Shown here: positions 4,996-63,619 of the stretch, piece by piece
How the letters are laid out: each line of letters starts with the position of its first letter
Numbering within the stretch: position 1 is the first letter of the stretch
NCBI GenBank assembly: GCA_041661275.1
Contig: JBAZUU010000003.1
Location: 25,586-89,585, forward strand
DNA: 64,000 nucleotides
Direction: 5' to 3'
Source of the DNA: Parcubacteria group bacterium
Lineage (GTDB): Bacteria; Patescibacteriota; Minisyncoccia; Moranbacterales; UBA2206
Notes under the pieces: model-generated
Seen by the model: the letters and a program-made list of their open reading frames with translations, nothing else
Told to the model about the DNA's origin: nothing
Database searches by the model: none
Made by a program: the position numbers and the translations under genes

Positions 4996-6849
4996 ATGAC
5001 AGCGAAAGAACTTCGTCAGAAATATTTGGATTTCTTTGAAAGCAGGGGACATGCAATTGTTCCAAGCGCTTCTTTGATTCCGGAAAATGACCCTACAACA
5101 CTCTTCACCGGTTCGGGAATGCAGCCGATGGTGCCATATCTTTTAGGAGAAAAACATCCATTGGGGACAAGAATTACTGATAGCCAAAAATCTTTTCGGA
5201 CTCAGGATATTGAAGAAGTGGGGGATAATCGGCATACTACTGTTTTTGAAATGTTGGGTAACTGGTCGCTTGGTGATTATTTCAAAAAAGAACAAATAAA
5301 TTGGATGTTTGAATTTTTGACCAATGAATTAAAACTAGATCCTGACCGTATATATGTAACAGTGTTTAGAGGAAATGAAAAGATAGGAATCCCAAGAGAT
5401 GACGAATCAGTAAAAATTTGGCAGGAAGTATTTAAAAAATCCGGAATTGAAGCAAGGCCAATTGATTTTTCTGAGCGGGATGGAATGCAGGGAGGAAGAA
5501 TCTTCTATTACGACGAAACAAAAAACTGGTGGTCGCGCGCCGGAGTGCCAGCCAATATGCCAGTAGGCGAGCCGGGAGGGCCTGACAGTGAAATGTTTTG
5601 GGATTTTGGAGTGGAACATAAGTTTCATGAAAATTCCAAATGGAAAGATGAGCCATGCCATATCAATTGTGATTGCGGAAGATTTTTGGAAATCGGAAAT
5701 AATGTCTTTATGGAGTATGTTAAAACGGAAAAAGGTTTTGAACTTCTGAAACAAAAAAATGTTGATTATGGAGGCGGGCTTGAACGCCAAATCGCAGCTA
5801 AGCTGGATACCCCAGATATATTTCTAACGGATATATTTACCCAAGCTATAAAAACAATTGAAAAACTATCAGGCAAGACATATTCTGGCAATGAAGAAGC
5901 GTTTCGAGTAATCCTGGACCACCTAAGGGCGTCTACACTCTTAATAGGCGATGGCGCATATCCGTCCAATAAGGATCAGGGATATTTTGTCAGAAGGCTT
6001 ATAAGGCGCGCTGTTAGATTTGCGCATAAGTTGGGTATAGAAAATAATTTCTGTTCCCAAATCGCGAAAGTTTATATTGAATATTACAAGGATCCATATA
6101 TAAGTCTTGAAAATGATAAAGAGAAAATTTTTAATGAGTTAGAAAATGAAGAAAATAAATTTAGAAAAACTCTTAAAAAGGGGGAATCTATGATAATAAA
6201 ATTAGAGGCGCACGATGTTACTGGAGAAGCTGCCTTTGATTTATATCAAACTTACGGATACCCAATAGAAATGGTAGAAGAGGCCGCCAAAGAAAGAGGC
6301 CTGAATATAGCAGACAATTTTAAGAATGTATTTCAGCAGGAGCTACAAAAACACCAAGATCTTTCCCGTACCGCTTCTGAAGGAAAATTTAAGGGCGGGC
6401 TGGCTGACCACAGCGAAAGGACTACTCAATTGCATACAACCGCGCATTTGATGCTGGCAGGACTGCGAAAAGTGCTGGGTGATCATATCCATCAGAAAGG
6501 ATCCAATATCAATGGCGAAAGAATCCGTTTTGACTTTTCGCACGGCGAAAAGATGACCGATGAACAAAAAAAAGCAGTAGAAGAATTTGTGAATACGGCC
6601 ATTAAGGCCGCGGTGCCGGTAACCCTGGAAGAAATGAGCCTAGAAGAGGCGCGGGAAGCTGGGGCGGAAGGCGCGTTTGAGGATAAATATGGTGACCGGG
6701 TGAAAGTATATACAATAGTTGGTTTTTCCAAAGAAATTTGCGGCGGCCCGCATGTAGAAAACACCGGCGATATCAAGGGTGTGTTTAAAATCACCAAAGA
6801 AGAGAGCTCCAGCGCGGGTGTGAGAAGGATAAAAGCGGTGGTGGAATAA
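4996..6849 (+). CDS. alaS: Alanine--tRNA ligase (short form lacking C-terminal C-Ala domain)
   Basis: N-terminus LRQKYLDFFESRGH and TGSGMQPM are classic AlaRS catalytic-domain motifs. Editing-domain HTTAHLMLAGLRKVLGDHIHQKGS (HxxxH) and C-terminal GGPH are present. Confidence 0.9.
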   Translation: MTAKELRQKYLDFFESRGHAIVPSASLIPENDPTTLFTGSGMQPMVPYLLGEKHPLGTRITDSQKSFRTQDIEEVGDNRHTTVFEMLGNWSLGDYFKKEQINWMFEFLTNELKLDPDRIYVTVFRGNEKIGIPRDDESVKIWQEVFKKSGIEARPIDFSERDGMQGGRIFYYDETKNWWSRAGVPANMPVGEPGGPDSEMFWDFGVEHKFHENSKWKDEPCHINCDCGRFLEIGNNVFMEYVKTEKGFELLKQKNVDYGGGLERQIAAKLDTPDIFLTDIFTQAIKTIEKLSGKTYSGNEEAFRVILDHLRASTLLIGDGAYPSNKDQGYFVRRLIRRAVRFAHKLGIENNFCSQIAKVYIEYYKDPYISLENDKEKIFNELENEENKFRKTLKKGESMIIKLEAHDVTGEAAFDLYQTYGYPIEMVEEAAKERGLNIADNFKNVFQQELQKHQDLSRTASEGKFKGGLADHSERTTQLHTTAHLMLAGLRKVLGDHIHQKGSNINGERIRFDFSHGEKMTDEQKKAVEEFVNTAIKAAVPVTLEEMSLEEAREAGAEGAFEDKYGDRVKVYTIVGFSKEICGGPHVENTGDIKGVFKITKEESSSAGVRRIKAVVE

Positions 6850-7259: not shown

Positions 7260-7588
7260 ACATTCAACATAAAGAACTAGCCGGTGGACGGTGGAATAAA
7301 CTTTCTTTTTTTGAGCAGATGGCCAATGTTGGCAGTGAAGTAGAAAGAACAATAAAATGGAAAGACAAAAGTAACAAGGAATATTCTGAACTGGCCTTTT
7401 TTCGCGCGCTTGAACTGCTTGATTTGACTATTGCGGATAAAAAAAATATTTCTAAATTAAGAGAGATAGTCAGAGCGCGGGAGGCTCTGGCAGACTATTT
7501 TGTCTTTGATAATGAATATCACTCAACAGACAAGTCCTGGCAAAATTATTTTTACGCCTTCAGCTTTGCAGCCAGGCTGAATAACTGA
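7256..7588 (+). CDS. Hypothetical protein
   Basis: 110-aa ORF translationally coupled to the upstream gene. Confidence 0.45.
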   Translation: MNIQHKELAGGRWNKLSFFEQMANVGSEVERTIKWKDKSNKEYSELAFFRALELLDLTIADKKNISKLREIVRAREALADYFVFDNEYHSTDKSWQNYFYAFSFAARLNN

Positions 7589-23473: not shown

Positions 23474-23547
23474 GCGGGATTCGTACAGTGGTAGTACATC
23501 GGTCTCCAAAACCGACGACGTAGGTTCGATTCCTACATCCCGTGCCA
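23474..23547 (+). tRNA. tRNA-Trp (anticodon CCA, CCA end encoded)
   Basis: Acceptor gcgggat/atcccgt. D-arm gtac-agtggtag-tac. Anticodon stem-loop tcggt-ctccaaa-accga. T-arm gtagg-ttcgatt-cctac. Discriminator g, then cca. Confidence 0.8.
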
Positions 23548-25137
23548 ACGTGTAATCAGCGAGCTTAATTGCTCGCTTTTTACTTTGTTAGAGCCACTTT
23601 CTCTCGGTTCTAACCCTTCATATTCACTATGCAAGGCAGGATACTTGTTTGTGATAGGCACAAACCAATCTTTGGCTTGAATGGCGGATATTTTGTCTTT
23701 TATGGCGTGGTTCGAGCCTAAATGCAAAATAAGCTCTCGTTTGCCCTCAAGGTCTCTTTTGAGAAATTCATTATGGGCGTAAGCCGCAAAAGAAAATGTC
23801 TTTTCCGTGAGCTCCAGCGTTTTTTCTTTGTTTTCTTCGGCGTGTTTCAGTTTATCCTCAAACTGGGCGATATTTTTCTTTAGCGTTTCCCGTTCAACTA
23901 CAAATTCATCATCGGTAATCAAATTTTTATAACGCATAGCCGTGAGGCTGGCAAGCTGATTTTTAGTTTCCGAAAGCGTTCTCTCTTGCATCTCTTTTAT
24001 TTTCTTCTCGTTATCAATCTCGGTGCCCTTTTTACTTTCGATAACTTCCAACGCCCAAGACAAAAATTCGGGAATCATTTCGTATTTTTCCAGTTCATAT
24101 TCCAGTTGCTCAAAAAGTTTTCTTTCCTCTAAAACTTTATTCTGCGTGCATTTTCTTTTTTTACTCTTTCTGGTGCAGTGATAATACGTATAGGCTCTTA
24201 GCTCGCCCGTGCTTTTAATGAGTTTATATTTTGTCTCTGCGGTATACATACAGCCACATTCCGGACAGCGGAACAAGCCAGTGAAAGGGAAATGGTGTTT
24301 TTTGGGTCTGGGTTTTCCCGCTCGTCCCAAAATGGCTTGAGCTCGGTCATATTCTTCGAGCGTTATCATTGGGGTGTGTTTTCCTGGATATTGTATGTTA
24401 TTGTGTTCGATAATTCCTGCATAAAAGATATTGGTAAAAATTTTATACATACCGCTCATTGCTAATGGCTTGTCTCCTAATCTCTTTTTCTTTATTGTCC
24501 GGAATCCCCATTCATTATTGAGCTTATTAAGGACTTGAGGCACTGTGTAATCACCAGTAAGCATTAAATCCCAAGCTTTACGAAGCAATCTGAATCGCAA
24601 TGGGTCTATTGGCATTGTGTGCGTTGCCAAATCATTTAAATAGCCTGTAGGTGCCATTCCAGGTCTCCACCCATCCTCTCGTTTCTTCTGGTTTCCTCTT
24701 TTAACAACCGTGCTTAAATCTCGAGAATACTGGTTAGCCATTCCACTTTCAACACTAAAAAGCAATACATTGTCCTCGGGTTTGTATTCCTTTTCTATTG
24801 TTTGGATTGATTTAATAACTCCTTGTTGCAAGAGCCAGCTTATTTTCCCGCTGTCTATTGGATTTCTGGAAAGACGGTTAAGGTGCCAGCATAAAATGCC
24901 ATCCGCCTCTCCACTTTCAATTCTTTTTATCATCTCATCGAATAGGGGACGATTGTTCGGTTTTTTGGCGGACTTTGATTCTTTGTAGGTATTCTTCACA
25001 TTAAAGCCCCTGTCCTTGGCTAATCGCTCCAGGCTTCCAACTTGGTCTTCGATTGATTGCACCTGGCGGTCTTCGCTTTCTGAAGATTTTCGAGCGTAGA
25101 GAAAATATTTTATTTCTTGCGGTTTAGTTGTTGCCAT
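23533..25137 (-). CDS. Large serine recombinase (phage/ICE integrase type)
   Basis: 534 aa. N-terminal resolvase catalytic domain (YARKSSESEDRQVQSIEDQ with catalytic Ser). Recombinase domain, zinc ribbon (CPECGC...YYHCTRK), C-terminal coiled coil. Confidence 0.8.
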   Translation of the reverse strand: MATTKPQEIKYFLYARKSSESEDRQVQSIEDQVGSLERLAKDRGFNVKNTYKESKSAKKPNNRPLFDEMIKRIESGEADGILCWHLNRLSRNPIDSGKISWLLQQGVIKSIQTIEKEYKPEDNVLLFSVESGMANQYSRDLSTVVKRGNQKKREDGWRPGMAPTGYLNDLATHTMPIDPLRFRLLRKAWDLMLTGDYTVPQVLNKLNNEWGFRTIKKKRLGDKPLAMSGMYKIFTNIFYAGIIEHNNIQYPGKHTPMITLEEYDRAQAILGRAGKPRPKKHHFPFTGLFRCPECGCMYTAETKYKLIKSTGELRAYTYYHCTRKSKKRKCTQNKVLEERKLFEQLEYELEKYEMIPEFLSWALEVIESKKGTEIDNEKKIKEMQERTLSETKNQLASLTAMRYKNLITDDEFVVERETLKKNIAQFEDKLKHAEENKEKTLELTEKTFSFAAYAHNEFLKRDLEGKRELILHLGSNHAIKDKISAIQAKDWFVPITNKYPALHSEYEGLEPRESGSNKVKSEQLSSLITRWHGM

Positions 25138-29449: not shown

Positions 29450-30727
29450 ATGGACATACTTAGAAAGCCAATAAATTCATTTGGTCATAGCGATATAGTA
29501 TCTTTTTGTCAGGAAAAAAATCCTGAAGGTGTCCAGTTGGATTATAAGAAGGAACTTCCTCAAAGAGGCCTTGCTAAACATTTTGCCGCATTTTCAAATA
29601 CCAGAGGCGGTGTATTGATAATCGGGGTCGAGGAGGATAAAAAATCAGGATTTCCAGTTATGTGGGACGGAATCGAAGGAGATGCAAAAATGATTGAAAA
29701 AATTCACCAGGAAGCAAGTAATGTTGAGCCGATTCCTTCGTATGAAGTGCACGCTACCGATAAAATTGACGGCAGAAATTTTATTATTATTAGAATATTT
29801 GAAGGAGACAAAACTCCTTATTATGTCCAAAATGATTCTAATGTTTGGGTAAGGACTGGAAACATAAGTAATCCTATTGATATTGCCTCTCCAGATGGAT
29901 TGGAGTTGTTGTTTGGAAAAAAGGAAAAAGCTGAAAAGGCTAGAAATAATTTTTTACTGATAGGCAAGGAATTACACGAAGCGGCGATTGAGAAAGAAGA
30001 GAAAAAAATAAGAGAAGGATGGAAAAAAGAAATAGAAAAAGAAGGAGGTACGACTATTTTTAGATATGAAAAAATAATCGGAATTGATGATGCGATATGC
30101 AAAATAACACTACAGCCATATTTTCCAAGTAAATCACTTGTAGCTCCAAAAGAAATTAAAGACAATATTGATTCAATCCGCTTTAGAAATGGCAATTTTA
30201 CATTTCCGCAGTTAAATGTCGAGCCATCACCAAAAGGAATAAGATATTTTTCTTATCAAAGAAGCAGAGAAATACTTGAATCTCAGATAGTTCTTGGACA
30301 AGGACTAATTCAAAATATTTTTACAGTTTCAAGGAAAGGTCAGGATGAAGAACCTAGAATAATAAGCCTCCAAGCAATCGCCACTAGAGTTTTTGGAATA
30401 TTTAGATTTGCCGATAAATTCTACAATAAATACGGCTATCAGGGAGTGCTCATTGGAAGTATAGAAATAAGCGGGGCTGAAGATGCTCTAGCCAGAAGGA
30501 TAGTGCCATCGGGTATGGATTTTTGGGATAATGATAAAATAAAAGATAGCTTGCTGTCCGATTATTTATGGGAAATAAAAATTGATACAAGGATATTAAA
30601 AGAAAAGGATAAACTGAAAAAATATTACGAAGAAGTTCTGGAAGAAATTTATTGGGATTTTGGTTTTGAAGAATTTGGCGAAGGTGTTATTGATAAATTT
30701 TTTAAAGATAGCGGGTTCACATTCTGA
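29450..30727 (+). CDS. AlbA_2/Schlafen-like (divergent AAA, putative DNA-binding) domain protein
   Basis: N-terminus VQLDYKKELPQRGLAKHFAAFSNTRGGVLIIGVEED follows the AlbA_2 (PF04326) pattern E..lE.K......l.k.i.AfaN..GG.l.iGv.d. Confidence 0.5.
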   Translation: MDILRKPINSFGHSDIVSFCQEKNPEGVQLDYKKELPQRGLAKHFAAFSNTRGGVLIIGVEEDKKSGFPVMWDGIEGDAKMIEKIHQEASNVEPIPSYEVHATDKIDGRNFIIIRIFEGDKTPYYVQNDSNVWVRTGNISNPIDIASPDGLELLFGKKEKAEKARNNFLLIGKELHEAAIEKEEKKIREGWKKEIEKEGGTTIFRYEKIIGIDDAICKITLQPYFPSKSLVAPKEIKDNIDSIRFRNGNFTFPQLNVEPSPKGIRYFSYQRSREILESQIVLGQGLIQNIFTVSRKGQDEEPRIISLQAIATRVFGIFRFADKFYNKYGYQGVLIGSIEISGAEDALARRIVPSGMDFWDNDKIKDSLLSDYLWEIKIDTRILKEKDKLKKYYEEVLEEIYWDFGFEEFGEGVIDKFFKDSGFTF

Positions 30728-33110: not shown

Positions 33111-33148
33111 TTGAACGAAAAAAATTAAAAATTTTTATCTAGAAAGTT

Positions 33149-33200
33149 TTTAGAAGTATTTCTGGCTATGTCTCATTTTTATCCCCCCTCCCTCTTGTTA
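33149..33200 (-). pseudogene. 5' gene remnant A (SD GGGAGGGGGG plus ATG, ORF MRHSQKYF*), paralogous to remnant B
   Basis: Minus-strand ATG at 33173-33175 preceded by gggagggggg. About 85% nt identity with 36222-36272. Confidence 0.4.
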
Positions 33201-33225
33201 GGGGTTTGTGTTATAATTTGCTTGT

Positions 33226-34210
33226 GATGCTATCATTAGAAACTAAAACTAAAGAAATAATCGACAGTCTAGTCCGACTAGCTAGGGAAGTAGAAATTTG
33301 CAATGGAATGGGCTTTTTTGATGGCAATAAATGTGCCGAAGATTTTTTTAAGGGCATTTTGAACCGTGTTTATGACTGCAATCTTATCAATCTTAATTTG
33401 GAAAAAAATAATTTTCCAGCAGTTGACTTAGGCGATAAATCCAAGAGATTAGCAATTCAAGTTACAGCGAGCACGGGGAGAGCAAAAATTTCAAATTCTA
33501 TAACGAAATTTGTAAATCATAACCTCTACGAAACTTATAAAAAGCCAATATTCTTAATCATTGGAAAAAAGCCAAAATATTCCAAAAATTTCGATGCCGA
33601 CACGGAGGGAAAATTTATTTTCAACCCTTCTGAAGATATTTTAGATATTACCGATTTAATAAAAATAATTTCTTCTTTACCCGTTGAAAAAATCACAGAC
33701 CTTAATGAGTTTATTATTTCTAATGTTACCGACGTATTATCTATTGACCCGATTAAAATTAACGAGCAGGATATTAAAAATTTAATTCTAGGCATAAGAG
33801 ATGCTATAAATGACGATACCTCGTTTAAACAAAAATATTCCAGTGATATTCCGATGAGATTCCAGGATTATATTGTAGAAAAAAATAAACTAAACGAGAT
33901 AGATAAATTGTTTTTTGAACAGGTGTTCGCTAGAAGTCTCGCGTATAGCGATGATATTAAGAATTTTTTATCCGACCCCATAAACGCAGAGATAAAAGAG
34001 TGGTATTTTACTATTAGTAGTGAACTTCAGAATGAATATATAAAAAATAGAGATAATTTCGATTTGTTGGAATTTATAGACAAGATTTATGATAAGGTCT
34101 GTAGAAAATTTAAGGCGGATTTGTCATATGACAAAAGAAAAATTAAGGTAATGCTTCATTGTATGTATTTTCATTGTGATTTAGGAATAAATCCAGAGGA
34201 AAAAACATAA
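33226..34210 (+). CDS. Putative effector with SMEK-like/restriction-endonuclease-fold N-terminal domain (candidate ABC-3C C-component)
   Basis: Motif NFPAVDLGDKSKRLAIQVTASTG (D...QVT, PD-(D/E)xK-like). ATG 33226 preceded by tataat at 33211. ORF track begins at TTG 33206. Confidence 0.4.
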
Positions 34211-34452
34211 TGATAACACCAAATAAATATACAAATTTAGACTTATCAGTCTTGAATATCGGGGCTGAAATTGTTAAGGTGCTTCAGAAAAGCAGTCTTC
34301 TTAAATATGATGACCTGTTAAATCAGATTCTGCTAAAGAAGGGGAGGGGGGCGAAAGAAATTTTTGTCTATTCTTTAAATTTTTTATTTGTTCTGAATAT
34401 AATTAAATACCATAGTTCTGAGGATATAATCGAATTTTATGAAACTCGTTAA
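34210..34452 (+). CDS. Small protein (80 aa), candidate ABC-3C middle component
   Basis: Start overlaps the upstream stop (TAATG). Its end overlaps the downstream ATPase by 14 nt. Confidence 0.4.
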   Translation: MITPNKYTNLDLSVLNIGAEIVKVLQKSSLLKYDDLLNQILLKKGRGAKEIFVYSLNFLFVLNIIKYHSSEDIIEFYETR

Positions 34453-36199
34453 GATATATTCTAATATTTCCAGTATGAAGCCAGTTATTTTTAATTCTGG
34501 CTTAAATATAATATACGGCGATGTAAGTCAATATGAAGGAGACAGCAATGAGCATAATTTAGGAAAAACTTCGCTTGTCTACCTGATAGATTTTTTGTTA
34601 TTAAAAAAAATAGATAAAAATAATATATTTAGGAAAAGAAGGAGTAATTTCTTAGGCTGGGATTTTTATTTGGAAGTAGAGCTGGATGATAAATCATACC
34701 TTACGATTAAAAGAAATCTGGTTAATGATTCCAGAATATCAATTAAGCTTCATAAGGAAGGAAATCAGGACTTGTCGTCGGAGGTGTTTTGGGACTATAA
34801 AGATAAATCAATAAGTGCGAAAAAAGAAGAGGAAAATGCGGTTAAGATTTTGAAAAATATATTGAAATTCGATGTCTTAAGCGAATATAATTTGAGGCAT
34901 TTTCTTTCCTATCTTCTAAGAACCCAAAATGATTATGCGGATGTTTTTAGATTAAGCACGTTCAAAAAAGACAAAAACTGGAAGCCACCCCTTCTTTCTC
35001 TATTTGGATATAACGGACAACTATTTGAGAAGAAGTATGATTTAGAGCAGGAAATTTCTATCCGTAGAGAATTGATTGCAAAAATGAAGTCGGATAATCT
35101 CATAGAGAAATCAGAGGAAGCTTTCAAATTACAAGCTGCCATTAAGGCTAGGGAGGATGAAAAGAAATCAATAGAAAAAAATCTTGAAATGCTCAATTTT
35201 TTTACCAGGGATGAACAAATGACGGAAAAAATAGTGAAAGAATTTGAGACAAAAATTAGTATCCTAAATTCTGAGGAATATAGCCTAAAATACGAGGTCG
35301 ACAAGATTAATAAATCATTGGAAAATAATGTTTCCGTTAAAGTTTCTGATGTTAAAAAGATATATGAAGAGGTGGAAATATTTTTTCCAGATAAGCTTAC
35401 TAAATCTTATGAGGAATTAGCCAATTTTAATAAGCAAATTTCAGACGAGAGGTCAAAATACCTAAAAAAAGAATTGGACAATCTGAATGATAGGCTGATG
35501 ATTATTAAAAAAGACCTCAAGGAATATAATGATAAGTTATCAGAAGCCTTATCGATAATAAAGGAGAAAGATGCATTTATAAAATTTAGGAAATATCAAA
35601 ATGAGCTTATAAAAATAGAAACAGACATTGCCATATATAAACAAAAAATTGAGAGTATAGACACTATAGAAAATTATAGTAATGCGATTAGCGAGATAAG
35701 AGAAAAATCCAAAGAAATATCCTCAATAATTAAGGGGGATTTGGCGGAAGAAAAAAATCCATTGCAAGAAATACGTGAGATGTACACTGAGATTTTTAGA
35801 AAAACTATGGATGGAACTGCTACTTTCGCAATAACTCCAAATAAATATGGTTATTTTGATTTTGAGCCGTTTGTAATAAGCGGCGGTGATTTAACAGGGC
35901 AGGGAGATGGATACACCGCTACAAAAGTTCAATGTGCCGCGTTTGTTATAGCGGCATTGGCTTACTATTCAAAAAATTCTTTTTATAAATTTGCCTATCA
36001 CGATGGCATTTTTGAGGGCTGGGGAGATAATCCTAAGATAAATTTTATCAATCTAATTAGGGAATATTGTGATAAATATAAAATTCAGTATATCGCAAGT
36101 ATGATAAAAAGTGATATTCCCAAAAACTTTGATTTTGAAAAAGAAGAAATAATAATTACTTTAGACAAAAACCAGCCATTATTTGGTATCAAATTTTGA
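34439..36199 (+). CDS. SMC/ABC-type ATPase with long coiled-coil insert (candidate ABC-3C ATPase)
   Basis: N-terminal head KLVKIYSNISSMKPVIFNSGLNIIYGDV...NLGKTSLVYL (RecF/SMC-like Walker A). Roughly 230-aa heptad-rich coiled coil. C-terminal head with FAYHDGIFEGWGD (Walker B/D-loop-like). Confidence 0.5.
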   Translation: MKLVKIYSNISSMKPVIFNSGLNIIYGDVSQYEGDSNEHNLGKTSLVYLIDFLLLKKIDKNNIFRKRRSNFLGWDFYLEVELDDKSYLTIKRNLVNDSRISIKLHKEGNQDLSSEVFWDYKDKSISAKKEEENAVKILKNILKFDVLSEYNLRHFLSYLLRTQNDYADVFRLSTFKKDKNWKPPLLSLFGYNGQLFEKKYDLEQEISIRRELIAKMKSDNLIEKSEEAFKLQAAIKAREDEKKSIEKNLEMLNFFTRDEQMTEKIVKEFETKISILNSEEYSLKYEVDKINKSLENNVSVKVSDVKKIYEEVEIFFPDKLTKSYEELANFNKQISDERSKYLKKELDNLNDRLMIIKKDLKEYNDKLSEALSIIKEKDAFIKFRKYQNELIKIETDIAIYKQKIESIDTIENYSNAISEIREKSKEISSIIKGDLAEEKNPLQEIREMYTEIFRKTMDGTATFAITPNKYGYFDFEPFVISGGDLTGQGDGYTATKVQCAAFVIAALAYYSKNSFYKFAYHDGIFEGWGDNPKINFINLIREYCDKYKIQYIASMIKSDIPKNFDFEKEEIIITLDKNQPLFGIKF

Positions 36200-36203
36200 T
36201 TTT

Positions 36204-36272
36204 TTAAATAAGAGGTTTCAGGAAGGATTTCTGGCTAAGCCTCATATTTTAGACCCCCTCCCCCCATTCGGC
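36204..36272 (-). pseudogene. 5' gene remnant B (SD GGGGGGAGGGGG plus ATG, ORF MRLSQKSFLKPLI*), paralogous to remnant A
   Basis: Minus-strand ATG at 36243-36245. Peptide MRLSQKSF vs MRHSQKYF in A. Confidence 0.4.
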
Positions 36273-36325: not shown

Positions 36326-36517
36326 TTACTGATGATTTTTTCTTAGGTCAGGTATGTAAATATACTCTTTTTTGTTCTCAAAGATAGTTATGACTTCCTC
36401 TACAACTGCGTGCCAGTCAAAACAAGGCTTATTTAGGCCTTGTTTTTGTATGGGGGTGGTAGGATGTTCGAACTGGCCGGCAAGCCGTTGACTTATGGCT
36501 GATTTTATGCAAGTATA
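36326..36517 (-). pseudogene. 3' gene remnant C1 (63 codons, no start; ends ...WHAVVEEVITIFENKKEYIYIPDLRKNHQ*)
   Basis: Codon-by-codon minus-strand translation from stop at 36326-36328 up to the in-frame stop at 36518-36520. Paralogous to 37980-38087. Confidence 0.45.
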
Positions 36518-36606
36518 TTAAGTCATAGCTCTTTTACAGGCAAAAAGCAGGCTACAGGCAGTAGCCAGAATTGCACCGGCTGATTATCAGAAAAAGGAGA
36601 ATAGGC

Positions 36607-37221
36607 ATGCAGGCGAGAATTAAAGGCTTTGTAGTAGGAGCCGACAGACCCTTTGAGGGTGGCGTCAGAGGCAAAAAGGTTTGGAAAGTCCGAGTCAAGG
36701 ATGAAAGTCACGAAGACAACGGCAAAAAGTTTGAGGTTGCCGAAGGCCATTGGAAGAGATTTTTTTCCAAAGGGCTTGATGTGACATTTGAACTCGGAAA
36801 TTTCCAGGAAGGCGGACAGGCAGTTCGCAAAGCTATCAATGTCAAGTTGTTAGACAACAAAACGGAAGCAAAGGAGCTTCCAATGGAAAAAGCGAAAATT
36901 GTCCAAGACCCTGACACTCTGTACGTGCTTATCACGGAATGTCGCGGCGAACTCAGCGTCTACTTCACTGGCTTTGAGACCGAGGAAGAAGCGGTTGCAT
37001 TTTTTATCAAGGAAACTGGCGAGAATGAAGCGGATTCGGAAAAGGTTGTTTGTTTTATTCCCTTCAATATCTATGATTGGACAGAAGACGCTCTTGATCC
37101 TGATATTGTAAATGGATTCGCGGTCGTTCGTTCTCTCGTAGGTATTACTTCCGCTCAGGAAGCCTTGGAAAAAATGATGACTGTTATTCTCAGGTCTTTT
37201 GCTACCAGAAAGGAAGAATAA
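36607..37221 (+). CDS. Hypothetical protein (gene 1 of a two-gene cassette)
   Basis: SD aaaaaggagaatagg then ATG 36607 (MQARIKGF...). ORF track starts at 36571. Confidence 0.45.
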   Translation: MQARIKGFVVGADRPFEGGVRGKKVWKVRVKDESHEDNGKKFEVAEGHWKRFFSKGLDVTFELGNFQEGGQAVRKAINVKLLDNKTEAKELPMEKAKIVQDPDTLYVLITECRGELSVYFTGFETEEEAVAFFIKETGENEADSEKVVCFIPFNIYDWTEDALDPDIVNGFAVVRSLVGITSAQEALEKMMTVILRSFATRKEE

Positions 37222-37222
37222 C

Positions 37223-37891
37223 ATGCGTATTCTGGTCATTGACGATACTCAGGGACATCTCGATGCGGCTCGACAAACTCTTTCAGGGCACGACCTTACT
37301 CTTTGCTCTTCTCATGACGAAGCTGTTAAGCTTCTCCTTTGGAAATACGATGATAATGAGAAGAGTCAAAGAATCAAGCAATATGAATCAGAAGGTCTGA
37401 AGTGGACTGATGCCTACGAAAAGGCGGAACAGGAAACAAGATTGCCCTATTGGGAGGTCGTTCTTTGTGACCTGCTCATGCCTGCTGGTAGCAGAGAACA
37501 GGGTTCGGGTCGTCATTTAGTTGGTCAAGAAATGGCTGTTGGTTGGTCACTCGCTTTGCAGGCAGTAAAAAACGGTGCCAACTATGTAGCCGTGATTACT
37601 GAATTAAATCATCACCAACATCCTGCTAGTGCCATGATTGATAAAATCAATGGGCACATTTTCACCATTGACAATGCTAAAATGCTCATGACCAATTACG
37701 TCGAAACCGTTGGTATTAAGGGTACCGAGGGTAAATGTATTGAATGCGGTGGTACTGGCAAGCACAGAAAGTGGGGATATGAAGATAATTGCCACTTCTG
37801 CAAAAACGGCATCGACTTTTTGGTAAAGGGCAAGGATTGGGGTAAGATTCTCAACCTGCTTCTCACAGGAAAAAGCATCGATGACGAATAA
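37223..37891 (+). CDS. REC (CheY-like receiver)-like domain protein with C-terminal zinc ribbon
   Basis: MRILVIDD start and VVLCDLLMP (phospho-acceptor-like D). C-terminus CIECGGTGKHRKWGYEDNCHFCKNG. Confidence 0.4.
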   Translation: MRILVIDDTQGHLDAARQTLSGHDLTLCSSHDEAVKLLLWKYDDNEKSQRIKQYESEGLKWTDAYEKAEQETRLPYWEVVLCDLLMPAGSREQGSGRHLVGQEMAVGWSLALQAVKNGANYVAVITELNHHQHPASAMIDKINGHIFTIDNAKMLMTNYVETVGIKGTEGKCIECGGTGKHRKWGYEDNCHFCKNGIDFLVKGKDWGKILNLLLTGKSIDDE

Positions 37892-37892
37892 T

Positions 37893-37955
37893 AGTGTGGA
37901 CTGAGCAGACCTACTGCTCCTGCCAAGGCGAACGCTTTGGCAGTTTTTTATTTAT
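37893..37955 (+). terminator. Tandem hairpins plus T-run after the two-gene cassette
   Basis: ctgccaaggcgaacgctttggcag followed by ttttttatt. Confidence 0.45.
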
Positions 37956-37979
37956 ATAGTGAGCGACACAGTGGGGTAG

Positions 37980-38217: not shown

Positions 38218-39105
38218 ATGACAAAAACACTCAATGTCTACAATAAAATAAGTTTTCTTCGTGAAAGATATTATAAAGCGTCTATTGGTAAAGAAGCGCT
38301 TATTAAACTTATTGCTGAAACTGAAATTGCCGAGCAGGTATATAACTCGAATGCAATAGAAAACAGCACGCTCACGCTTGAAGAAACTGAAAAAATACTC
38401 CTTCAAATTGATCTGGACAGATATATAACTGAACGAGAAATTTTTGAGGCTAAAAATCTAGCGAGAGTCGTGTCGTATATTAGCAAGAGGGCCAAGGAAC
38501 AAGAGCTTGCTCTTGAGGTGATTTTGTCGCTACACAAGATGCTGATTTCTAATATTCGTGATGATATTGCGGGAAGATTCAGGCGTGACAATGAATTTGT
38601 TCGAGTTGGAAATTATATCGCTCCTGGTCCGCAAGAAGTGTTGGGTCGTCTTGAAAAAATGTTAAATGAATATAACGCGGAAAGTCATGAAAATATTATC
38701 AAACGCATAGCAAGATTACATCTTGCTTTTGAGCATATTCACCCTTTCTGCGATGGTAATGGACGAATCGGGCGAGTAATTAATAATTATTTGCTGATGC
38801 GAGAGGGATTTGTTCCAATAAACATAAAATTTATTGATAGAAAAAAATATTACGAAGCATTTAAAGAATTTGACGTGAAAGGCGCGACTGCTGTCATGGA
38901 GGAAATTGTAGGAAAGGCGTTGACCAATAGTTATTACAAGCGTTTGGCCTATTTGGAGGGAAAGGAAATTATCACCCTGGCTGATTATGCGAAAAAGAAT
39001 AAAATTTCTCACTCGAATCTTATTAATAAAGCAGGAAGACAAACTATCGAAGCTTTTTTAGAAAAAGGAATTTGGAAGATTGGCGTCGATCATAACGGAA
39101 AATAA
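38218..39105 (+). CDS. Fic family protein (AMPylase/Fido domain)
   Basis: HPFCDGNGRIGR is the Fic motif HPFx(D/E)GNGR. Confidence 0.8.
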   Translation: MTKTLNVYNKISFLRERYYKASIGKEALIKLIAETEIAEQVYNSNAIENSTLTLEETEKILLQIDLDRYITEREIFEAKNLARVVSYISKRAKEQELALEVILSLHKMLISNIRDDIAGRFRRDNEFVRVGNYIAPGPQEVLGRLEKMLNEYNAESHENIIKRIARLHLAFEHIHPFCDGNGRIGRVINNYLLMREGFVPINIKFIDRKKYYEAFKEFDVKGATAVMEEIVGKALTNSYYKRLAYLEGKEIITLADYAKKNKISHSNLINKAGRQTIEAFLEKGIWKIGVDHNGK

Positions 39106-49434: not shown

Positions 49435-49469
49435 TTCAATTTTATTAATAGGAGTGCTATAATACAACT

Positions 49470-49587
49470 ATGCAGGAATTTTGGCAGAAAAAGATAAAAA
49501 TACATATAATATTTGAGTCGCTGGAGAGTTATAACGAAAGCGTATATTTTTAGATTTTGAAAGCCGTCCATTTGGACGGTTTTTTTG
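49470..49587 (+). ncRNA. Candidate small RNA (copy 1 of repeated element) with own promoter and intrinsic terminator
   Basis: Promoter ttcaat-N17-tataat (49437-49463). Terminator ccgtcc-attt-ggacgg plus ttttttt (49564-49587). About 85% identical to 55435-55551. Confidence 0.45.
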
Positions 49588-49669
49588 TAAAAAAACAGAC
49601 AATTTAGAAGTTGACAAATAAACCAAACAGGTATATAATAACCAGTTATCATAACGTCTTTAAATAACT

Positions 49670-55181: not shown

Positions 55182-55434
55182 GACATATATGGATAATTCA
55201 GTAATACTTTGTAGCGCATGTTTGGGATGGAAAACATGGTGTTTTTGCAGTAGCTACTAGCGAGAAAATAACTAGCTCGGTCACTTTCTCGTTAGAACCT
55301 ACCGTATGGCAAGAGCCAAGCTATCCAGAGCCAGGAGAAATCGTTCTTCTTGGTAATCTTCGTAAGAAGCGGGCTTGATCAAAAATGAGCCACATGTGTT
55401 TGACTAACAGAGCTTGTTTTTCGTATAATACACT

Positions 55435-55551
55435 TATGCAGGAAATCAGGAATAAGAAGATAAAAATACATACAATATTCGAGTCGCTCGAGAATCAAAA
55501 CGAAAGCGTATATTTTTAGTTTTTGAAGGCCGTCCATTGGGGCGGTTTTTT
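55435..55551 (+). ncRNA. Candidate small RNA (copy 2 of repeated element) with promoter TTGACT-N18-TATAAT and intrinsic terminator
   Basis: ttgact 55399-55404 and tataat 55423-55428. Terminator gccgtcc-attg-gggcgg plus ttttttt. Its G-U replaces the A-U of copy 1, keeping the stem. Confidence 0.45.
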
Positions 55552-55573
55552 TGTCGGAAAAGATTGAGGATTG

Positions 55574-61378: not shown

Positions 61379-61437
61379 GGCGCTTTTGCTTTAATGTTTT
61401 TTGTGGTAAAATTTAATCATTGGAATTTAGAAAAAAT

Positions 61438-61956
61438 ATGGCAAAAAGAATGTTTTCTTGGATGAATCCGAAATTAGAAGTAAGGGAGACAGAAAAATAT
61501 GGAAAAGGTGTTTTTGCAAAAGAAGATATAGAAAAAAACGAACTACTTGCAATTTTTGGTGGCTATGTTTTGACATTAGAGGAAGAAGAAGGATTATCAG
61601 GAGAATTTGCAGATACAGGAGTTCAGATCCATGATGATTTCGTATTAACTTCCAAAGAACAAAAAGAAGATACGGATTGTTTTAATCATAGTTGCGATCC
61701 AAATGCTGGATACAATGGGCAAATATTTCTGGTGGCTATGGAAAATATCGAAAAAGAAAAAGAAGTAACTTTCGATTATGCTATGGTGTTGCATAAAGCA
61801 GAGAAATCAAGGGAGTATAAGATAAAATGTCTTTGCGGTTCGGAAAAATGCAGAGAATATATAACAGAGAATGACTGGAAAATACCAGAACTTCAAAAAA
61901 AATATGATGGATATTTCCAATATTTTTTGCAAGAGAAAATAAATAAATTAAAATAA
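61438..61956 (+). CDS. SET domain protein (protein-lysine methyltransferase-like)
   Basis: C-terminus FDYAMVLHKAEKSREYKIKCLCGSEKCREYI matches the SET/post-SET pattern (FDY...C.CG...CRG). Confidence 0.6.
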   Translation: MAKRMFSWMNPKLEVRETEKYGKGVFAKEDIEKNELLAIFGGYVLTLEEEEGLSGEFADTGVQIHDDFVLTSKEQKEDTDCFNHSCDPNAGYNGQIFLVAMENIEKEKEVTFDYAMVLHKAEKSREYKIKCLCGSEKCREYITENDWKIPELQKKYDGYFQYFLQEKINKLK

Positions 61957-61960
61957 AAAA

Positions 61961-63619
61961 ATGTTTTGCACGGACATACCAGCTCCTTTCTGGCTAATCT
62001 TTTCCAAAACCACACCTGCGTTACTTTATTATTCCCATATACCAACGGCCATCATCTCATTACTTATTGGTTTTTTTGTATTCTACAAAAACAGAACTCT
62101 TGCAAGTAAAATATTATTTGCCATATCTATAGTATTTTCTTTGTGGATTTTTTCAAGCTTAATTGCTTGGACAAACATTGATAGTAGAATAATAATGTTT
62201 TCATGGGCATTATCTGGCTTGCTTTATTCTTCGATATACATTTTGGGGCTATATTTCGTGTATGTTTTTATAGATAAGAAAGACATATCTATTTGGATAA
62301 AATCAATAATCGGACTACTTTTTCTGCCAGTTATATTGCTTTCAGCTACAAAGTTTAATTTAGCGGGATTTGATTTAGTTAACTGCGAAGCGCAAGAAGG
62401 AGTATATTTCACAAATTATTATTATTTTTTGGGTCTTTTAATTTCTGTGTGGATATTAATACTGGCTGTTTTGCGGTATCGAAAAGCTGAAAAAGAATTT
62501 AAAAAACAAATAATATATCTGACAATCGGAATAGAATTATTCTTATTTTCTTTTTTCGTCACCGGATTTTTGGCGAGCTACATGGTAGAAAAAGGAATGA
62601 TCACTGATTTTGGACTTGAGCAATACGGCCTCTTCGGCATGACAGTTTTTATGGGATTTTTGGCCTATCTGATCGTCAAATTCAAAGCGTTTAATATAAA
62701 AATGATCGCCACTCAAGCCTTGGCAGTGGCGATGGTAATTTTGATTGCTTCGCAATTTGCGTATGTTCAAAATTTTACTAATAAAATTCTAACTGGTATA
62801 ACACTGGCACTTTCCATTATTGGCGGGTGGATGCTGGTGCAGTCAGTAAAACTGGAGGTACAGAGGAAAGAACAACTCCAGGAAATGACGGACAAGCTGG
62901 CGTCGGCCAATGATAAGTTGCGCACGCTCGACAATGCCAAATCGGAATTTATTTCTATCGCTTCCCATCAATTGCGAACTCCTCTCACCGCGGTGAAGGG
63001 CTACGGCTCTCTGCTTTTGGAAGGATCGTATGGCAAAGTGACGGAAAAACAGAAAGATGTTCTCAATAAGATGTACCAATCCAATGAACGCCTCATAACG
63101 TTGGTCGAAGATATGCTCAATCTGTCGAGAATTGAATCGGGCAGGATGGAATATAAGTTTGAGAAAGTGAAGATAGAGGAGCTTTTGAGCGAAACTTATG
63201 ACACTTTCATTTTGCGGGCTAAAGAGCGGGGATTGACGCTCGAGATGGTGAAGAATGAAAAACCGCTTCCCGAAGTGATGACCGACAGAAACAAGATTAG
63301 AGAAATTATTTCCAATTTTACAGACAATGCCATCAAATATACGCCTTCCGGCGGAGTGAAAATCAAAGCCTTTGAAAAAGACGGCAAGCTGACAGTGGCG
63401 GTGAGCGACACCGGAATTGGCATTCCCAAAGACGAAATTCCCTATTTGTTCGAAAAATTCTCGCGTGGAAAGGATGTTTCTCGGCTCAACGCCGGAGGCA
63501 CAGGTCTTGGGCTGCACGTGGGGATAAAGATGATAGAAGAACTGCACGGTCGCATCTGGATAGAATCCGCAGGCACGGGGAAGGGCTCGACATTTTTTGT
63601 GGAACTGCCGGTGGGGTAG
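61961..63619 (+). CDS. Membrane sensor histidine kinase
   Basis: Seven-TM N-terminus. HisKA H-box ASHQLRTPLTAVKGY. HATPase G-boxes DTGIGIP and GGTGLGL. Confidence 0.8.
   Translation: MFCTDIPAPFWLIFSKTTPALLYYSHIPTAIISLLIGFFVFYKNRTLASKILFAISIVFSLWIFSSLIAWTNIDSRIIMFSWALSGLLYSSIYILGLYFVYVFIDKKDISIWIKSIIGLLFLPVILLSATKFNLAGFDLVNCEAQEGVYFTNYYYFLGLLISVWILILAVLRYRKAEKEFKKQIIYLTIGIELFLFSFFVTGFLASYMVEKGMITDFGLEQYGLFGMTVFMGFLAYLIVKFKAFNIKMIATQALAVAMVILIASQFAYVQNFTNKILTGITLALSIIGGWMLVQSVKLEVQRKEQLQEMTDKLASANDKLRTLDNAKSEFISIASHQLRTPLTAVKGYGSLLLEGSYGKVTEKQKDVLNKMYQSNERLITLVEDMLNLSRIESGRMEYKFEKVKIEELLSETYDTFILRAKERGLTLEMVKNEKPLPEVMTDRNKIREIISNFTDNAIKYTPSGGVKIKAFEKDGKLTVAVSDTGIGIPKDEIPYLFEKFSRGKDVSRLNAGGTGLGLHVGIKMIEELHGRIWIESAGTGKGSTFFVELPVG

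Follow-up and report, generated by a model that had tools for sequence, protein, structure and literature searches.

Among the described systems closest to the locus studied here are the single-domain response regulators (CheY, Spo0F, DivK and CpdR; PF00072). Zinc knuckles of a comparable type are found in the Cys-rich domain of DnaJ (PF00684) and in anti-TRAP (PF15777, PDB 3lcz), and anti-TRAP sets a precedent, by analogy only, in that its knuckle blocks an RNA-binding protein. Regulators with an RNA-binding output are represented by the ANTAR proteins AmiR and EutV. Meanwhile, regulation in the Patescibacteria, or Candidate Phyla Radiation (CPR), is almost unknown, and their genomes are small, with few histidine kinases and many families that carry no annotation. 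Here, we describe a two-gene unit (gene 1 and gene 2) in a 64,000-nucleotide (nt) stretch of contig JBAZUU010000003.1 from a Parcubacteria group bacterium; this whole stretch is called the window. We propose, with a probability of roughly 0.45, that gene 2 encodes a stand-alone receiver switch that acts on an adjacent nucleic-acid-binding partner, so that the operon of gene 1 and gene 2 would specify a split response regulator. The features of the unit are as follows (positions in the window, residues in amino acids, aa).

36593..36599, plus strand: AAAGGAG, similar to a Shine-Dalgarno (SD) sequence, 7 nt 5' of the gene 1 start, read from the sequence
36607..37221, plus strand: gene 1, from the ATG at 36607 to the stop at 37221, 204 aa, a CPR family without annotation
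37223..37891, plus strand: gene 2, from the ATG at 37223 to the stop at 37891, 222 aa, an atypical stand-alone receiver with a CheY fold
37343..37450, plus strand: helical hairpin insert of gene 2, aa 41-76, between alpha2 and beta3 (predicted helices 44-56 and 61-71; a gap against CheY in hhalign)
37469..37471, plus strand: codon of D83, which pairs with CheY D57 and is the predicted phospho-acceptor (Asp in 125/125 sequences)
37607..37624, plus strand: N-H-H-Q-H-P loop, aa 129-134, right after beta4 and T126, between strand 121-125 and helix 134-140 of the predicted structure
37736..37810, plus strand: putative zinc knuckle CIECGGTG ... CHFCKNG of the DnaJ/anti-TRAP type, aa 172-196, with C172xxC175 and C190xxC193
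37829..37867, plus strand: GKDW motif and final helix, aa 203-215, a candidate alpha5 (predicted helix 206-215)
37920..37953, plus strand: hairpin (37920-37943; 10 pairs, 6 of them G-C) and T-run 3' of gene 2, similar to an intrinsic terminator, from a promoter/terminator scan

The two genes lie on the same strand, and 1 nt separates the stop of gene 1 from the start of gene 2 (TAA-C-ATG). They correspond to WCV59_02785 and WCV59_02790 (100% identity, 100% coverage), which are annotated on a 172,883-bp contig of a Parcubacteria group bacterium metagenome-assembled genome (MAG). In addition, gene 2 has an SD-like sequence of its own, the purine-rich AAAGGAAG, 6 nt ahead of its start. Gene 1 and gene 2 form one operon in this Parcubacteria (CPR) genome. 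A preliminary description of this DNA had proposed two co-directional genes with a 1-nt gap, an SD sequence and a downstream terminator, and all of these are present. However, it counted 205 aa in gene 1, one too many, and it set the pair apart by a guanine-plus-cytosine (GC) content of 46%. The measured value is 44.6%, compared with 39.1% for the window and 30-52% for the window's other genes, so the pair falls within the ordinary range. It stands out solely by contrast, since the genes that flank it, an ABC-3C system (30.6%) and a Fic gene (36.3%), are low in GC.

To characterize gene 2, a set of 5.8 billion proteins was searched and 90 homologues were found. The named ones come nearly all from Parcubacteria, Moranbacteria or Patescibacteria, and several are labelled 'CheY-like' by JGI. 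A 38-sequence gene 2 alignment (A1) was the input for an AlphaFold2 (AF2) model, which reached a predicted local distance difference test (pLDDT) score of 94.7 and a predicted template modelling (pTM) score of 0.87. The predicted structure has the flavodoxin-like (beta/alpha)5 fold of a REC domain. When the model was used in Foldseek, receivers were among the best-supported matches, with weak E-values, and the structural neighbours were all signalling receivers, with no enzymes among them. Furthermore, hhalign of A1 against an alignment of the CheY, Spo0F, PhoB, NtrC and OmpR receivers gave a probability of 96% (E 3.6e-9) and paired D8 with CheY D13 and D83 with CheY D57; this match covers only the part of gene 2 from beta1 to the start of alpha3. 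Thus, model and profile comparison both yield the CheY fold that the preliminary description had suspected. An extension of the receiver alignment through beta4, beta5 and alpha5 by way of knuckle-less relatives contradicted the AF2 secondary structure and was dropped.

Sequence searches gave fainter signals. The best PDB sequence matches of the gene 2 family profile were receiver domains and anti-TRAP, all of them marginal, and the gene 2 protein itself returned marginal and unrelated PDB matches only (phmmer, E at least 0.1). This protein has no match in Pfam (E up to 1), PADLOC or NCBIfam, and nothing better than E 0.008 in the PHROGs. Among the 38 relatives, 31 match PF00072 below its curated threshold of 30.2 bits, with a best E of 2.5e-6.

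Conservation was counted over 125 sequences, made up of the 90 proteins and translations from the fetched loci. The gene 2 family keeps the receiver phospho-acceptor pocket: D7 (97%) and D8 (98%) after beta1, D83 (100%) after beta3, and a Thr or Ser at position 126 (100%) after beta4. P87 is also present in 100%. Position 126 is Thr in 101 and Ser in 24 of the sequences, and T126 directly follows the predicted strand 121-125; its assignment as the Thr/Ser at the end of beta4 was made by the order of secondary structure elements, with no residue-level structural alignment. The two receiver motifs singled out in the preliminary description, MRILVIDD and VVLCDLLMP, are present at aa 1-8 and 79-87, respectively.

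Several lineage-specific parts are built into this fold. The long insert that had been noticed ahead of the acceptor Asp is indeed there, as the predicted helical hairpin of residues 41-76, and the alpha2-beta3 segment in which it lies varies from 7 to 61 residues across the family. The later half of the predicted structure consists of beta4 (121-125), a short alpha4 (134-140), a beta5 region (145-157) and the last helix (206-215). The NHHxHP loop is near-invariant, with H130 at 98%, H131 at 99%, H133 at 94% and P134 at 98%, and D140 reaches 95%. In receiver domains, the position directly after beta4 is next to the active site.

The knuckle belongs to a beta-rich insertion that separates the beta5 region from the last helix. 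Its first motif, CIECGGTG, fits CxxCxGxG, and its second, CHFCKNG, has the form CxxCxxG; together, they make a predicted Zn site. Sub-threshold matches to PF00684 (DnaJ_CXXCXGXG) occur in 20 and to PF15777 (Anti-TRAP) in 17 of the 38 relatives. The number of CxxC motifs after HHxHP varies in the 125 sequences (none in 27, one in 16, two in 64, three in 11 and four in 7), and about a fifth of the family has no knuckle. The relatives without these cysteines still end in K(D/N/H)W and a helix, and the knuckle is therefore an insertion rather than a C-terminal domain. All 104 sequences aligned there share K204 and W206, knuckle-less members included. Thus, the zinc ribbon described earlier is right in its CxxC...CxxC pattern (C172/C175 and C190/C193, of the CxxCxGxG type) but not in its C-terminal position, where GKDW and a helix follow.

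One possibility for the His triad is a metal site next to the Asp pocket, and gene 2 could then be read as an enzyme or a metal sensor. Gene 2 could be a metal-dependent hydrolase, for example a phosphatase or phosphodiesterase, on a receiver scaffold, in which H130, H131, H133 and D140 join D7, D8 and D83 in a transition-metal centre and gene 1 or a TrmB-type protein is the substrate-presenting or regulated partner. The triad, P134 and D140 are as strongly conserved as the acidic pocket, and the His residues lie in the extended loop right after beta4, next to the active site; a kinase is never adjacent and an output domain is absent. However, the structural neighbours of the model are all signalling receivers, T/S126 and a candidate lysine are kept as phosphotransfer chemistry would need, and no hydrolase family was matched in the profile searches. 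We consider a hydrolase unlikely, and it is the alternative that survives best.

A phospho-switch would need a phosphodonor. There is one histidine kinase in the window, and it is 24 kb from the pair:

61961..63619, plus strand: membrane histidine kinase with a long hydrophobic N-terminal half and HisKA and HATPase_c domains, with no receiver gene alongside

This kinase is preceded by a SET-domain gene (61420-61956) and followed by an open reading frame (ORF) with a HIGH motif that runs off the window and is probably an aminoacyl-tRNA synthetase. A search of the window with a simple receiver profile turned up no receiver ORF besides gene 2. Of the genes in the window, the kinase at 61961 alone is a candidate phosphodonor. 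CPR genomes hold few histidine kinases, and they average ~0.29 kinases per 100 genes (PMC10805038). In addition, no homologue of the catalytic core of this kinase was found in the flanks of the 46 other related loci, so the earlier remark that no cognate kinase is nearby applies well beyond this genome. Since a kinase is never adjacent, the phosphodonor would be a distant receiver-less kinase (such as that at 61961) or a small-molecule donor.

Atypical response regulators that work independently of phosphorylation are known, and gene 2 might be such a pseudo-receiver or adaptor, in which the fold and knuckle do no more than bind the regulator next door constitutively, and the conserved Asp pocket has a structural or metal-binding role. 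Pseudo-receivers usually lose some of the pocket residues. In the gene 2 family, however, D7, D8, D83 and T/S126 are near-totally conserved over 125 divergent sequences, as for a working phospho-acceptor. The want of an adjacent cognate kinase at any locus in the kinase-poor CPR (PMC10805038) and the missing canonical lysine after beta5 agree with a pseudo-receiver, and we judge it to be improbable, next in rank after the hydrolase.

Gene 1 belongs to a family that is harder to place. A word-indexed search found 4 relatives besides its own database entry, and when 1.84 billion representatives were searched with a HMMER profile, the number rose to 161, of which 94 had E up to 1e-10. These 161 comprise full-length proteins of ~190 aa, many N-domain-only proteins of ~80 aa, and some N-domain fusions, including membrane-anchored ones. 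One protein (P0219) looked by eye like a fusion of gene 1 with a receiver-like C-terminus; it was rejected, as hhalign gave 0.2% and a Gly stands at the acceptor position. In the predicted structure of gene 1, residues 1-81 appear to form an all-beta domain similar to the oligonucleotide/oligosaccharide-binding (OB) or cold-shock fold, residues 83-102 a low-confidence linker and residues 105-202 an alpha/beta C-domain. No member of the family has a meaningful Pfam match, and there is no NCBIfam and no significant PDB sequence match; for this reason, the N-domain is termed OB/cold-shock-like at the level of fold only. A cold-shock-domain match in Pfam was found in 0 of 32 family members. Sequence homology of the N-domain to cold-shock domains was also considered and rejected as not significant (hhalign 2.3%), and the likeness in fold remains. 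The conserved positions of gene 1 are structural or basic (G7, V9, V10, G11, W26, V28, K41, V59, F61, A76 and V79), the N-domain is rich in basic residues, and no motif of a catalytic type is conserved.

The neighbourhoods were surveyed from both sides. Starting from gene 2, we collected 32 genome-scan loci in CPR MAGs (5 of them with unverified Bdellovibrionales or Gammaproteobacteria labels), which contain 36 gene-2-family genes. A TrmB-type regulator is divergent from and directly upstream of about 22 of these 36 genes. It is a protein of 245-265 aa with the TrmB helix-turn-helix domain (PF01978, E 3e-17). The closest relatives of gene 2 (50-62% identity: L002, L003, L029 and L006) are TrmB-linked, at least mostly. 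Gene 1 has no detectable similarity to the TrmB partners. A TrmB gene or remnant was looked for within the window by tblastn, and none was found.

Starting from gene 1, we obtained 13 distinct gene-1-family loci, with the window included; a metagenome scan with the gene 1 alignment had contributed one locus (L034). In 5 of the 13, namely the window, L034, L040, L043 and L045, a gene-2-family gene is the next co-directional gene, with gaps of 1, 1, -20, 11 and 11 nt, respectively. The partners in L034, L040, L043 and L045 match the gene 2 family by hmmsearch (E 1e-48 to 3e-35), all lack the zinc knuckle, and come from divergent pairings with ~30-38% protein identity. At 3 more loci, another protein with a sub-threshold Response_reg match follows: in L001 it comes after an intervening 160-aa gene, and in L036 and L041 it is a protein of 431-477 aa with the match at its C-terminus. 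Thus, the conserved pairing that the preliminary description put forward for checking is found in the window and in four other loci. The gene 1/gene 2 pairing is real, but it is a minority context for the gene 2 family.

Two further observations concern these loci. In L035 (4078-4854) and L038 (4106-4873), a family of ~255 aa without annotation, which starts with MKIFLIYRNN, stands immediately 3' of the gene-1-family gene in place of a receiver, and the two proteins are 39% identical. Meanwhile, L010 and L028, which overlap on one Kerfeldbacteria contig (JACPGJ010000007.1), contain an array of at least 8 TrmB-like genes that alternate with small genes, and 3 gene-2-family paralogues within ~23 kb are part of this array. 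This arrangement suggests a local expansion of a TrmB/receiver module.

The pairing could also be mere adjacency: gene 2 would be a solo CheY-like regulator, for which the kinase at 61961 is one conceivable donor, and gene 1 would only be co-transcribed. Gene 1 is near none of the 36 gene-2-family genes in the genome-scan loci, the nearest relatives of gene 2 are mostly TrmB-linked, and about 35 homologues of gene 2 share at least 50% identity with it while gene 1 has a single such homologue, at 53%. However, the pairing recurs in four divergent loci with operon-like spacing, and 3 further gene-1-family genes precede proteins with weak receiver matches. Receiver genes are expected to be rare in the kinase-poor CPR (PMC10805038), so that receiver-like neighbours at 8 of 13 loci are unlikely to arise by chance, which is an estimate and not a computed value. 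Taken together, an adjacency with no function appears quite improbable, and it ranks below both the hydrolase and the pseudo-receiver.

The stand-alone receiver switch would work as follows. Gene 2, which lacks an effector domain, would act as a phospho-switch, possibly a metal switch. The variable insertion, which falls where receivers have their alpha4-beta5-alpha5 signalling face, would contact the neighbouring nucleic-acid-binding partner. This partner would be the OB-fold gene 1 protein here and the divergent TrmB-type winged-helix regulator in most relatives. The outcome would be one response regulator divided over two polypeptides. In a bolder version, this would be a CPR lineage-specific split response regulator that senses phosphorylation or metal/redox directly and controls TrmB or OB-fold partners, with the insertion acting as anti-TRAP does on TRAP; we think this version doubtful, though not as unlikely as the hydrolase.

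Several points weigh against the proposed receiver switch. First, the gene 2 protein itself falls below every Pfam and NCBIfam threshold. Second, the family has no conserved Lys at the canonical place after beta5 (strand 145-149); K204 is a candidate equivalent by virtue of its place just before the last helix and nothing else. Third, ordinary receiver chemistry does not involve a His triad like the near-invariant one here, and a phospho-switch leaves it unexplained. Fourth, no gene-1-family ORF was detected by hidden Markov model near any of the 36 gene-2-family genes in the 32 genome-scan loci, and 5 of the 13 gene-1-family loci (L035, L037, L038, L039 and L042) have no receiver-like neighbour. 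Fifth, the model of gene 1 is weak (pLDDT 59.7), its family gives 2.3% in hhalign against the cold-shock alignment, and the RNP1 and RNP2 motifs are absent; because of this, nucleic-acid binding by gene 1 is a guess at the level of fold only. Finally, the phosphorylation of gene 2, its metal binding and its contact with the gene 1 protein are inferred steps of the model.

If the bolder version of the switch is right, it would be a widespread and previously unrecognised CPR regulatory module, possibly independent of kinases. We found no relevant report in the literature that was searched on the gene 2 family, on TrmB in Patescibacteria, or on combinations of a receiver with cold-shock or DnaJ-type parts. 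Two CPR families are defined here: a receiver that conserves the pocket and carries the NHHxHP loop and a variable knuckle, and its putative OB-fold partner. Their reproducible neighbourhoods, with a TrmB or an OB-fold gene, offer a testable idea of how signals could be coupled to expression without kinase-regulator operons. In addition, gene 2 is a well-predicted target for biochemistry (pLDDT 94.7), and if the His triad binds a metal next to the Asp pocket, this would be new chemistry for the receiver fold.

The unit is flanked by a repeat element, whose features are as follows.

36335..36413, strand not assigned: upstream copy of the element; the minus strand reads promoter-like TTGAGA-N17-TACATA
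36420..36450, plus strand: hairpin and T-run right after the upstream copy, palindromic in blastn and resembling a hairpin of L001
37986..38064, strand not assigned: downstream copy of the element; the minus strand reads TTGAGA-17-TATATT, promoter-like with 10/12 matches

The two copies form a 79-nt direct repeat with 78% identity, and the similarity reaches ~110 nt. The preliminary description had taken the flanks for gene remnants, a view that was given up: blastx against all collected proteins matched only the flanks' own frames, and what the flanks hold instead is this repeat. The element also occurs three times in L016, from a MAG labelled Berkelbacteria (5811-5838, 6755-6782 and 7554-7581; 82% identity over 60 nt), where the copies stand before a gene-2 homologue, after it, and after the next gene. 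This gene-2 homologue is just 35% identical to the window protein, compared with the 82% DNA identity of the element. An element of ~60 nt is in this way shared by the flanks of gene-2-family cassettes from two CPR genomes that are only distantly related. No copy was found in the other fetched loci or in viral contigs.

The element consists of two conserved blocks around a variable 8 nt, and its minus strand reads TTNAGA-N17-TATATT behind GTTAGAACTATTTTT. To judge by its sequence, this promoter-like pattern would correspond to a sigma-70 promoter firing leftwards. One L016 copy lies upstream of a minus-strand gene for a protein with a vault-shoulder/SPFH domain. In the remaining copies, both of those in the window included, the predicted promoter would run antisense to the gene before it, entering that gene at the 3' end. 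A structured RNA was considered, and Rfam gave nothing, while RNAalifold gave 0 pairs and no consensus structure. An integron-like cassette array, suspected from the flanking repeats and the same-strand genes, was also rejected: the repeats are direct and not inverted, there is no consensus fold, and there is no IntI. The only recombinase found is a large serine recombinase 13 kb off.

The wider surroundings of the pair include the following features.

23533-25137, minus strand: large serine recombinase with Resolvase, Recombinase and Zn_ribbon_recom domains, ~13 kb from the pair
33206-34210: ABC-3C effector (SMEK_N and CTD12), assigned from domain and model matches
34210-34452: ABC-3C middle component (MC8), upstream of the pair
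34439-36199: ABC-3C ATPase (DUF2326; PADLOC-DB model PDC-M68B), upstream of the pair
38218-39105: Fic gene (SoFic/PDC-S04 models), downstream of the pair

The ABC-3C system is complete, with its three components, and at 30.6% it has the lowest GC content of the window. It is bracketed by a 59-nt direct repeat with 73% identity (33122-33180 and 36191-36249). A Schlafen/AlbA_2-domain protein at 29450-30727 is low in GC like the ABC-3C genes (34% overall, 26% at third codon positions). The Fic gene has a perfect promoter (TTGACA-17-TATAAT, in the region from 38181) that ends 9 nt before the ATG, and its mRNA would therefore be leaderless or nearly so. Its 3' side is occupied by an ABC exporter and a class II aminoacyl-tRNA synthetase. 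Fic-domain genes also occur within ~3 kb of gene-1-family genes in L037, L041 and L043, which may be coincidence.

The large serine recombinase overlaps the end of tRNA-Trp (23474-23547), which closes a cluster of four tRNA genes; minus-strand genes follow, one of which encodes an HTH_36 protein. An integrated element, which would hold the variable region up to ~39 kb, may have one of its boundaries at the recombinase/tRNA-Trp site. Our impression is that the region of ~27-39 kb is variable and partly foreign. An attachment-site (att) duplicate of tRNA-Trp that would delimit an island was looked for, and none was found. Elsewhere in the window, a 138-nt direct repeat with 85% identity (49458-49595 and 55424-55561, ~6 kb apart) is unusually long for the window.

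Neither the gene 1 nor the gene 2 protein matches PADLOC-DB at E up to 1, and neither has a PHROG family match. A phage origin was considered and rejected, as neither protein family nor the flanking element occurs in the IMG/VR viral contigs. The annotated neighbours of the related loci are mostly housekeeping genes (IF3, SmpB, ribosomal proteins, TsaD/E, PolA and RsgA). Together with the absence from IMG/VR, this leaves a defence role unsupported at the family level. The defence island of the preliminary description is thus borne out in part: this locus has ABC-3C upstream and Fic downstream, and the neighbours annotated elsewhere do not resemble defence genes. It is very unlikely that gene 1 and gene 2 make up a mobile-island module for defence or of a toxin-antitoxin-like kind, for what speaks for it here (the ABC-3C, Fic and Schlafen/AlbA_2 genes, the recombinase beside tRNA-Trp, the direct repeats that flank the cassette, and the Fic genes near three other gene-1-family loci) is met by the null results in PADLOC, PHROG and IMG/VR, the housekeeping neighbours elsewhere, the missing att repeat, and a GC content that resembles the core genome and not the low-GC ABC-3C genes.

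Finally, the proposed receiver switch can be compared with the known systems. The TrmB family (PF01978) is the usual genomic partner of the gene 2 family (~22/36), but no TrmB-like gene is present in this window, where gene 1 takes the neighbouring place. Compared with the cold-shock and S1-like OB proteins (CspA/CspB and the cold-shock domains of Unr), gene 1 has no significant profile match (hhalign 2.3%) and no RNP1 or RNP2, and it carries an extra alpha/beta C-domain of ~100 residues in a model of moderate to low confidence. In the ANTAR regulators, RNA binding is the output of the regulator; here, RNA binding is putative, the putative binding module is a separate polypeptide with an unrelated fold, and there is no ANTAR domain.

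With the DnaJ Cys-rich domain and anti-TRAP, gene 2 shares the CxxCxGxG motif (C172-I-E-C-G-G-T-G), and some of its relatives carry four CxxC motifs as DnaJ does. However, the knuckle of gene 2 is an insertion inside a receiver and not a separate domain or protein. Furthermore, it has a single four-cysteine site whose second motif is CxxCxxG, and ~1/5 of the family is knuckle-less.

The last comparison is with the single-domain response regulators. Gene 2 differs from them in falling below the Pfam threshold, in the 36-residue helical hairpin between alpha2 and beta3, in the extended beta4-alpha4 loop with its near-invariant NHHxHP, and in the ~50-residue insertion, which carries the knuckle and follows the beta5 region ahead of the last helix. 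It also has no lysine after beta5 and an invariant KDW before the last helix. In addition, the gene 2 family is never beside a kinase gene, and nearly all of its named homologues and source genomes belong to the CPR. Nevertheless, gene 2 is like these regulators in its acidic pair, in the Asp aligned to CheY D57 and in the Thr/Ser after beta4. Since it has no effector domain, as is the case in single-domain regulators, it would act through protein-protein contacts.

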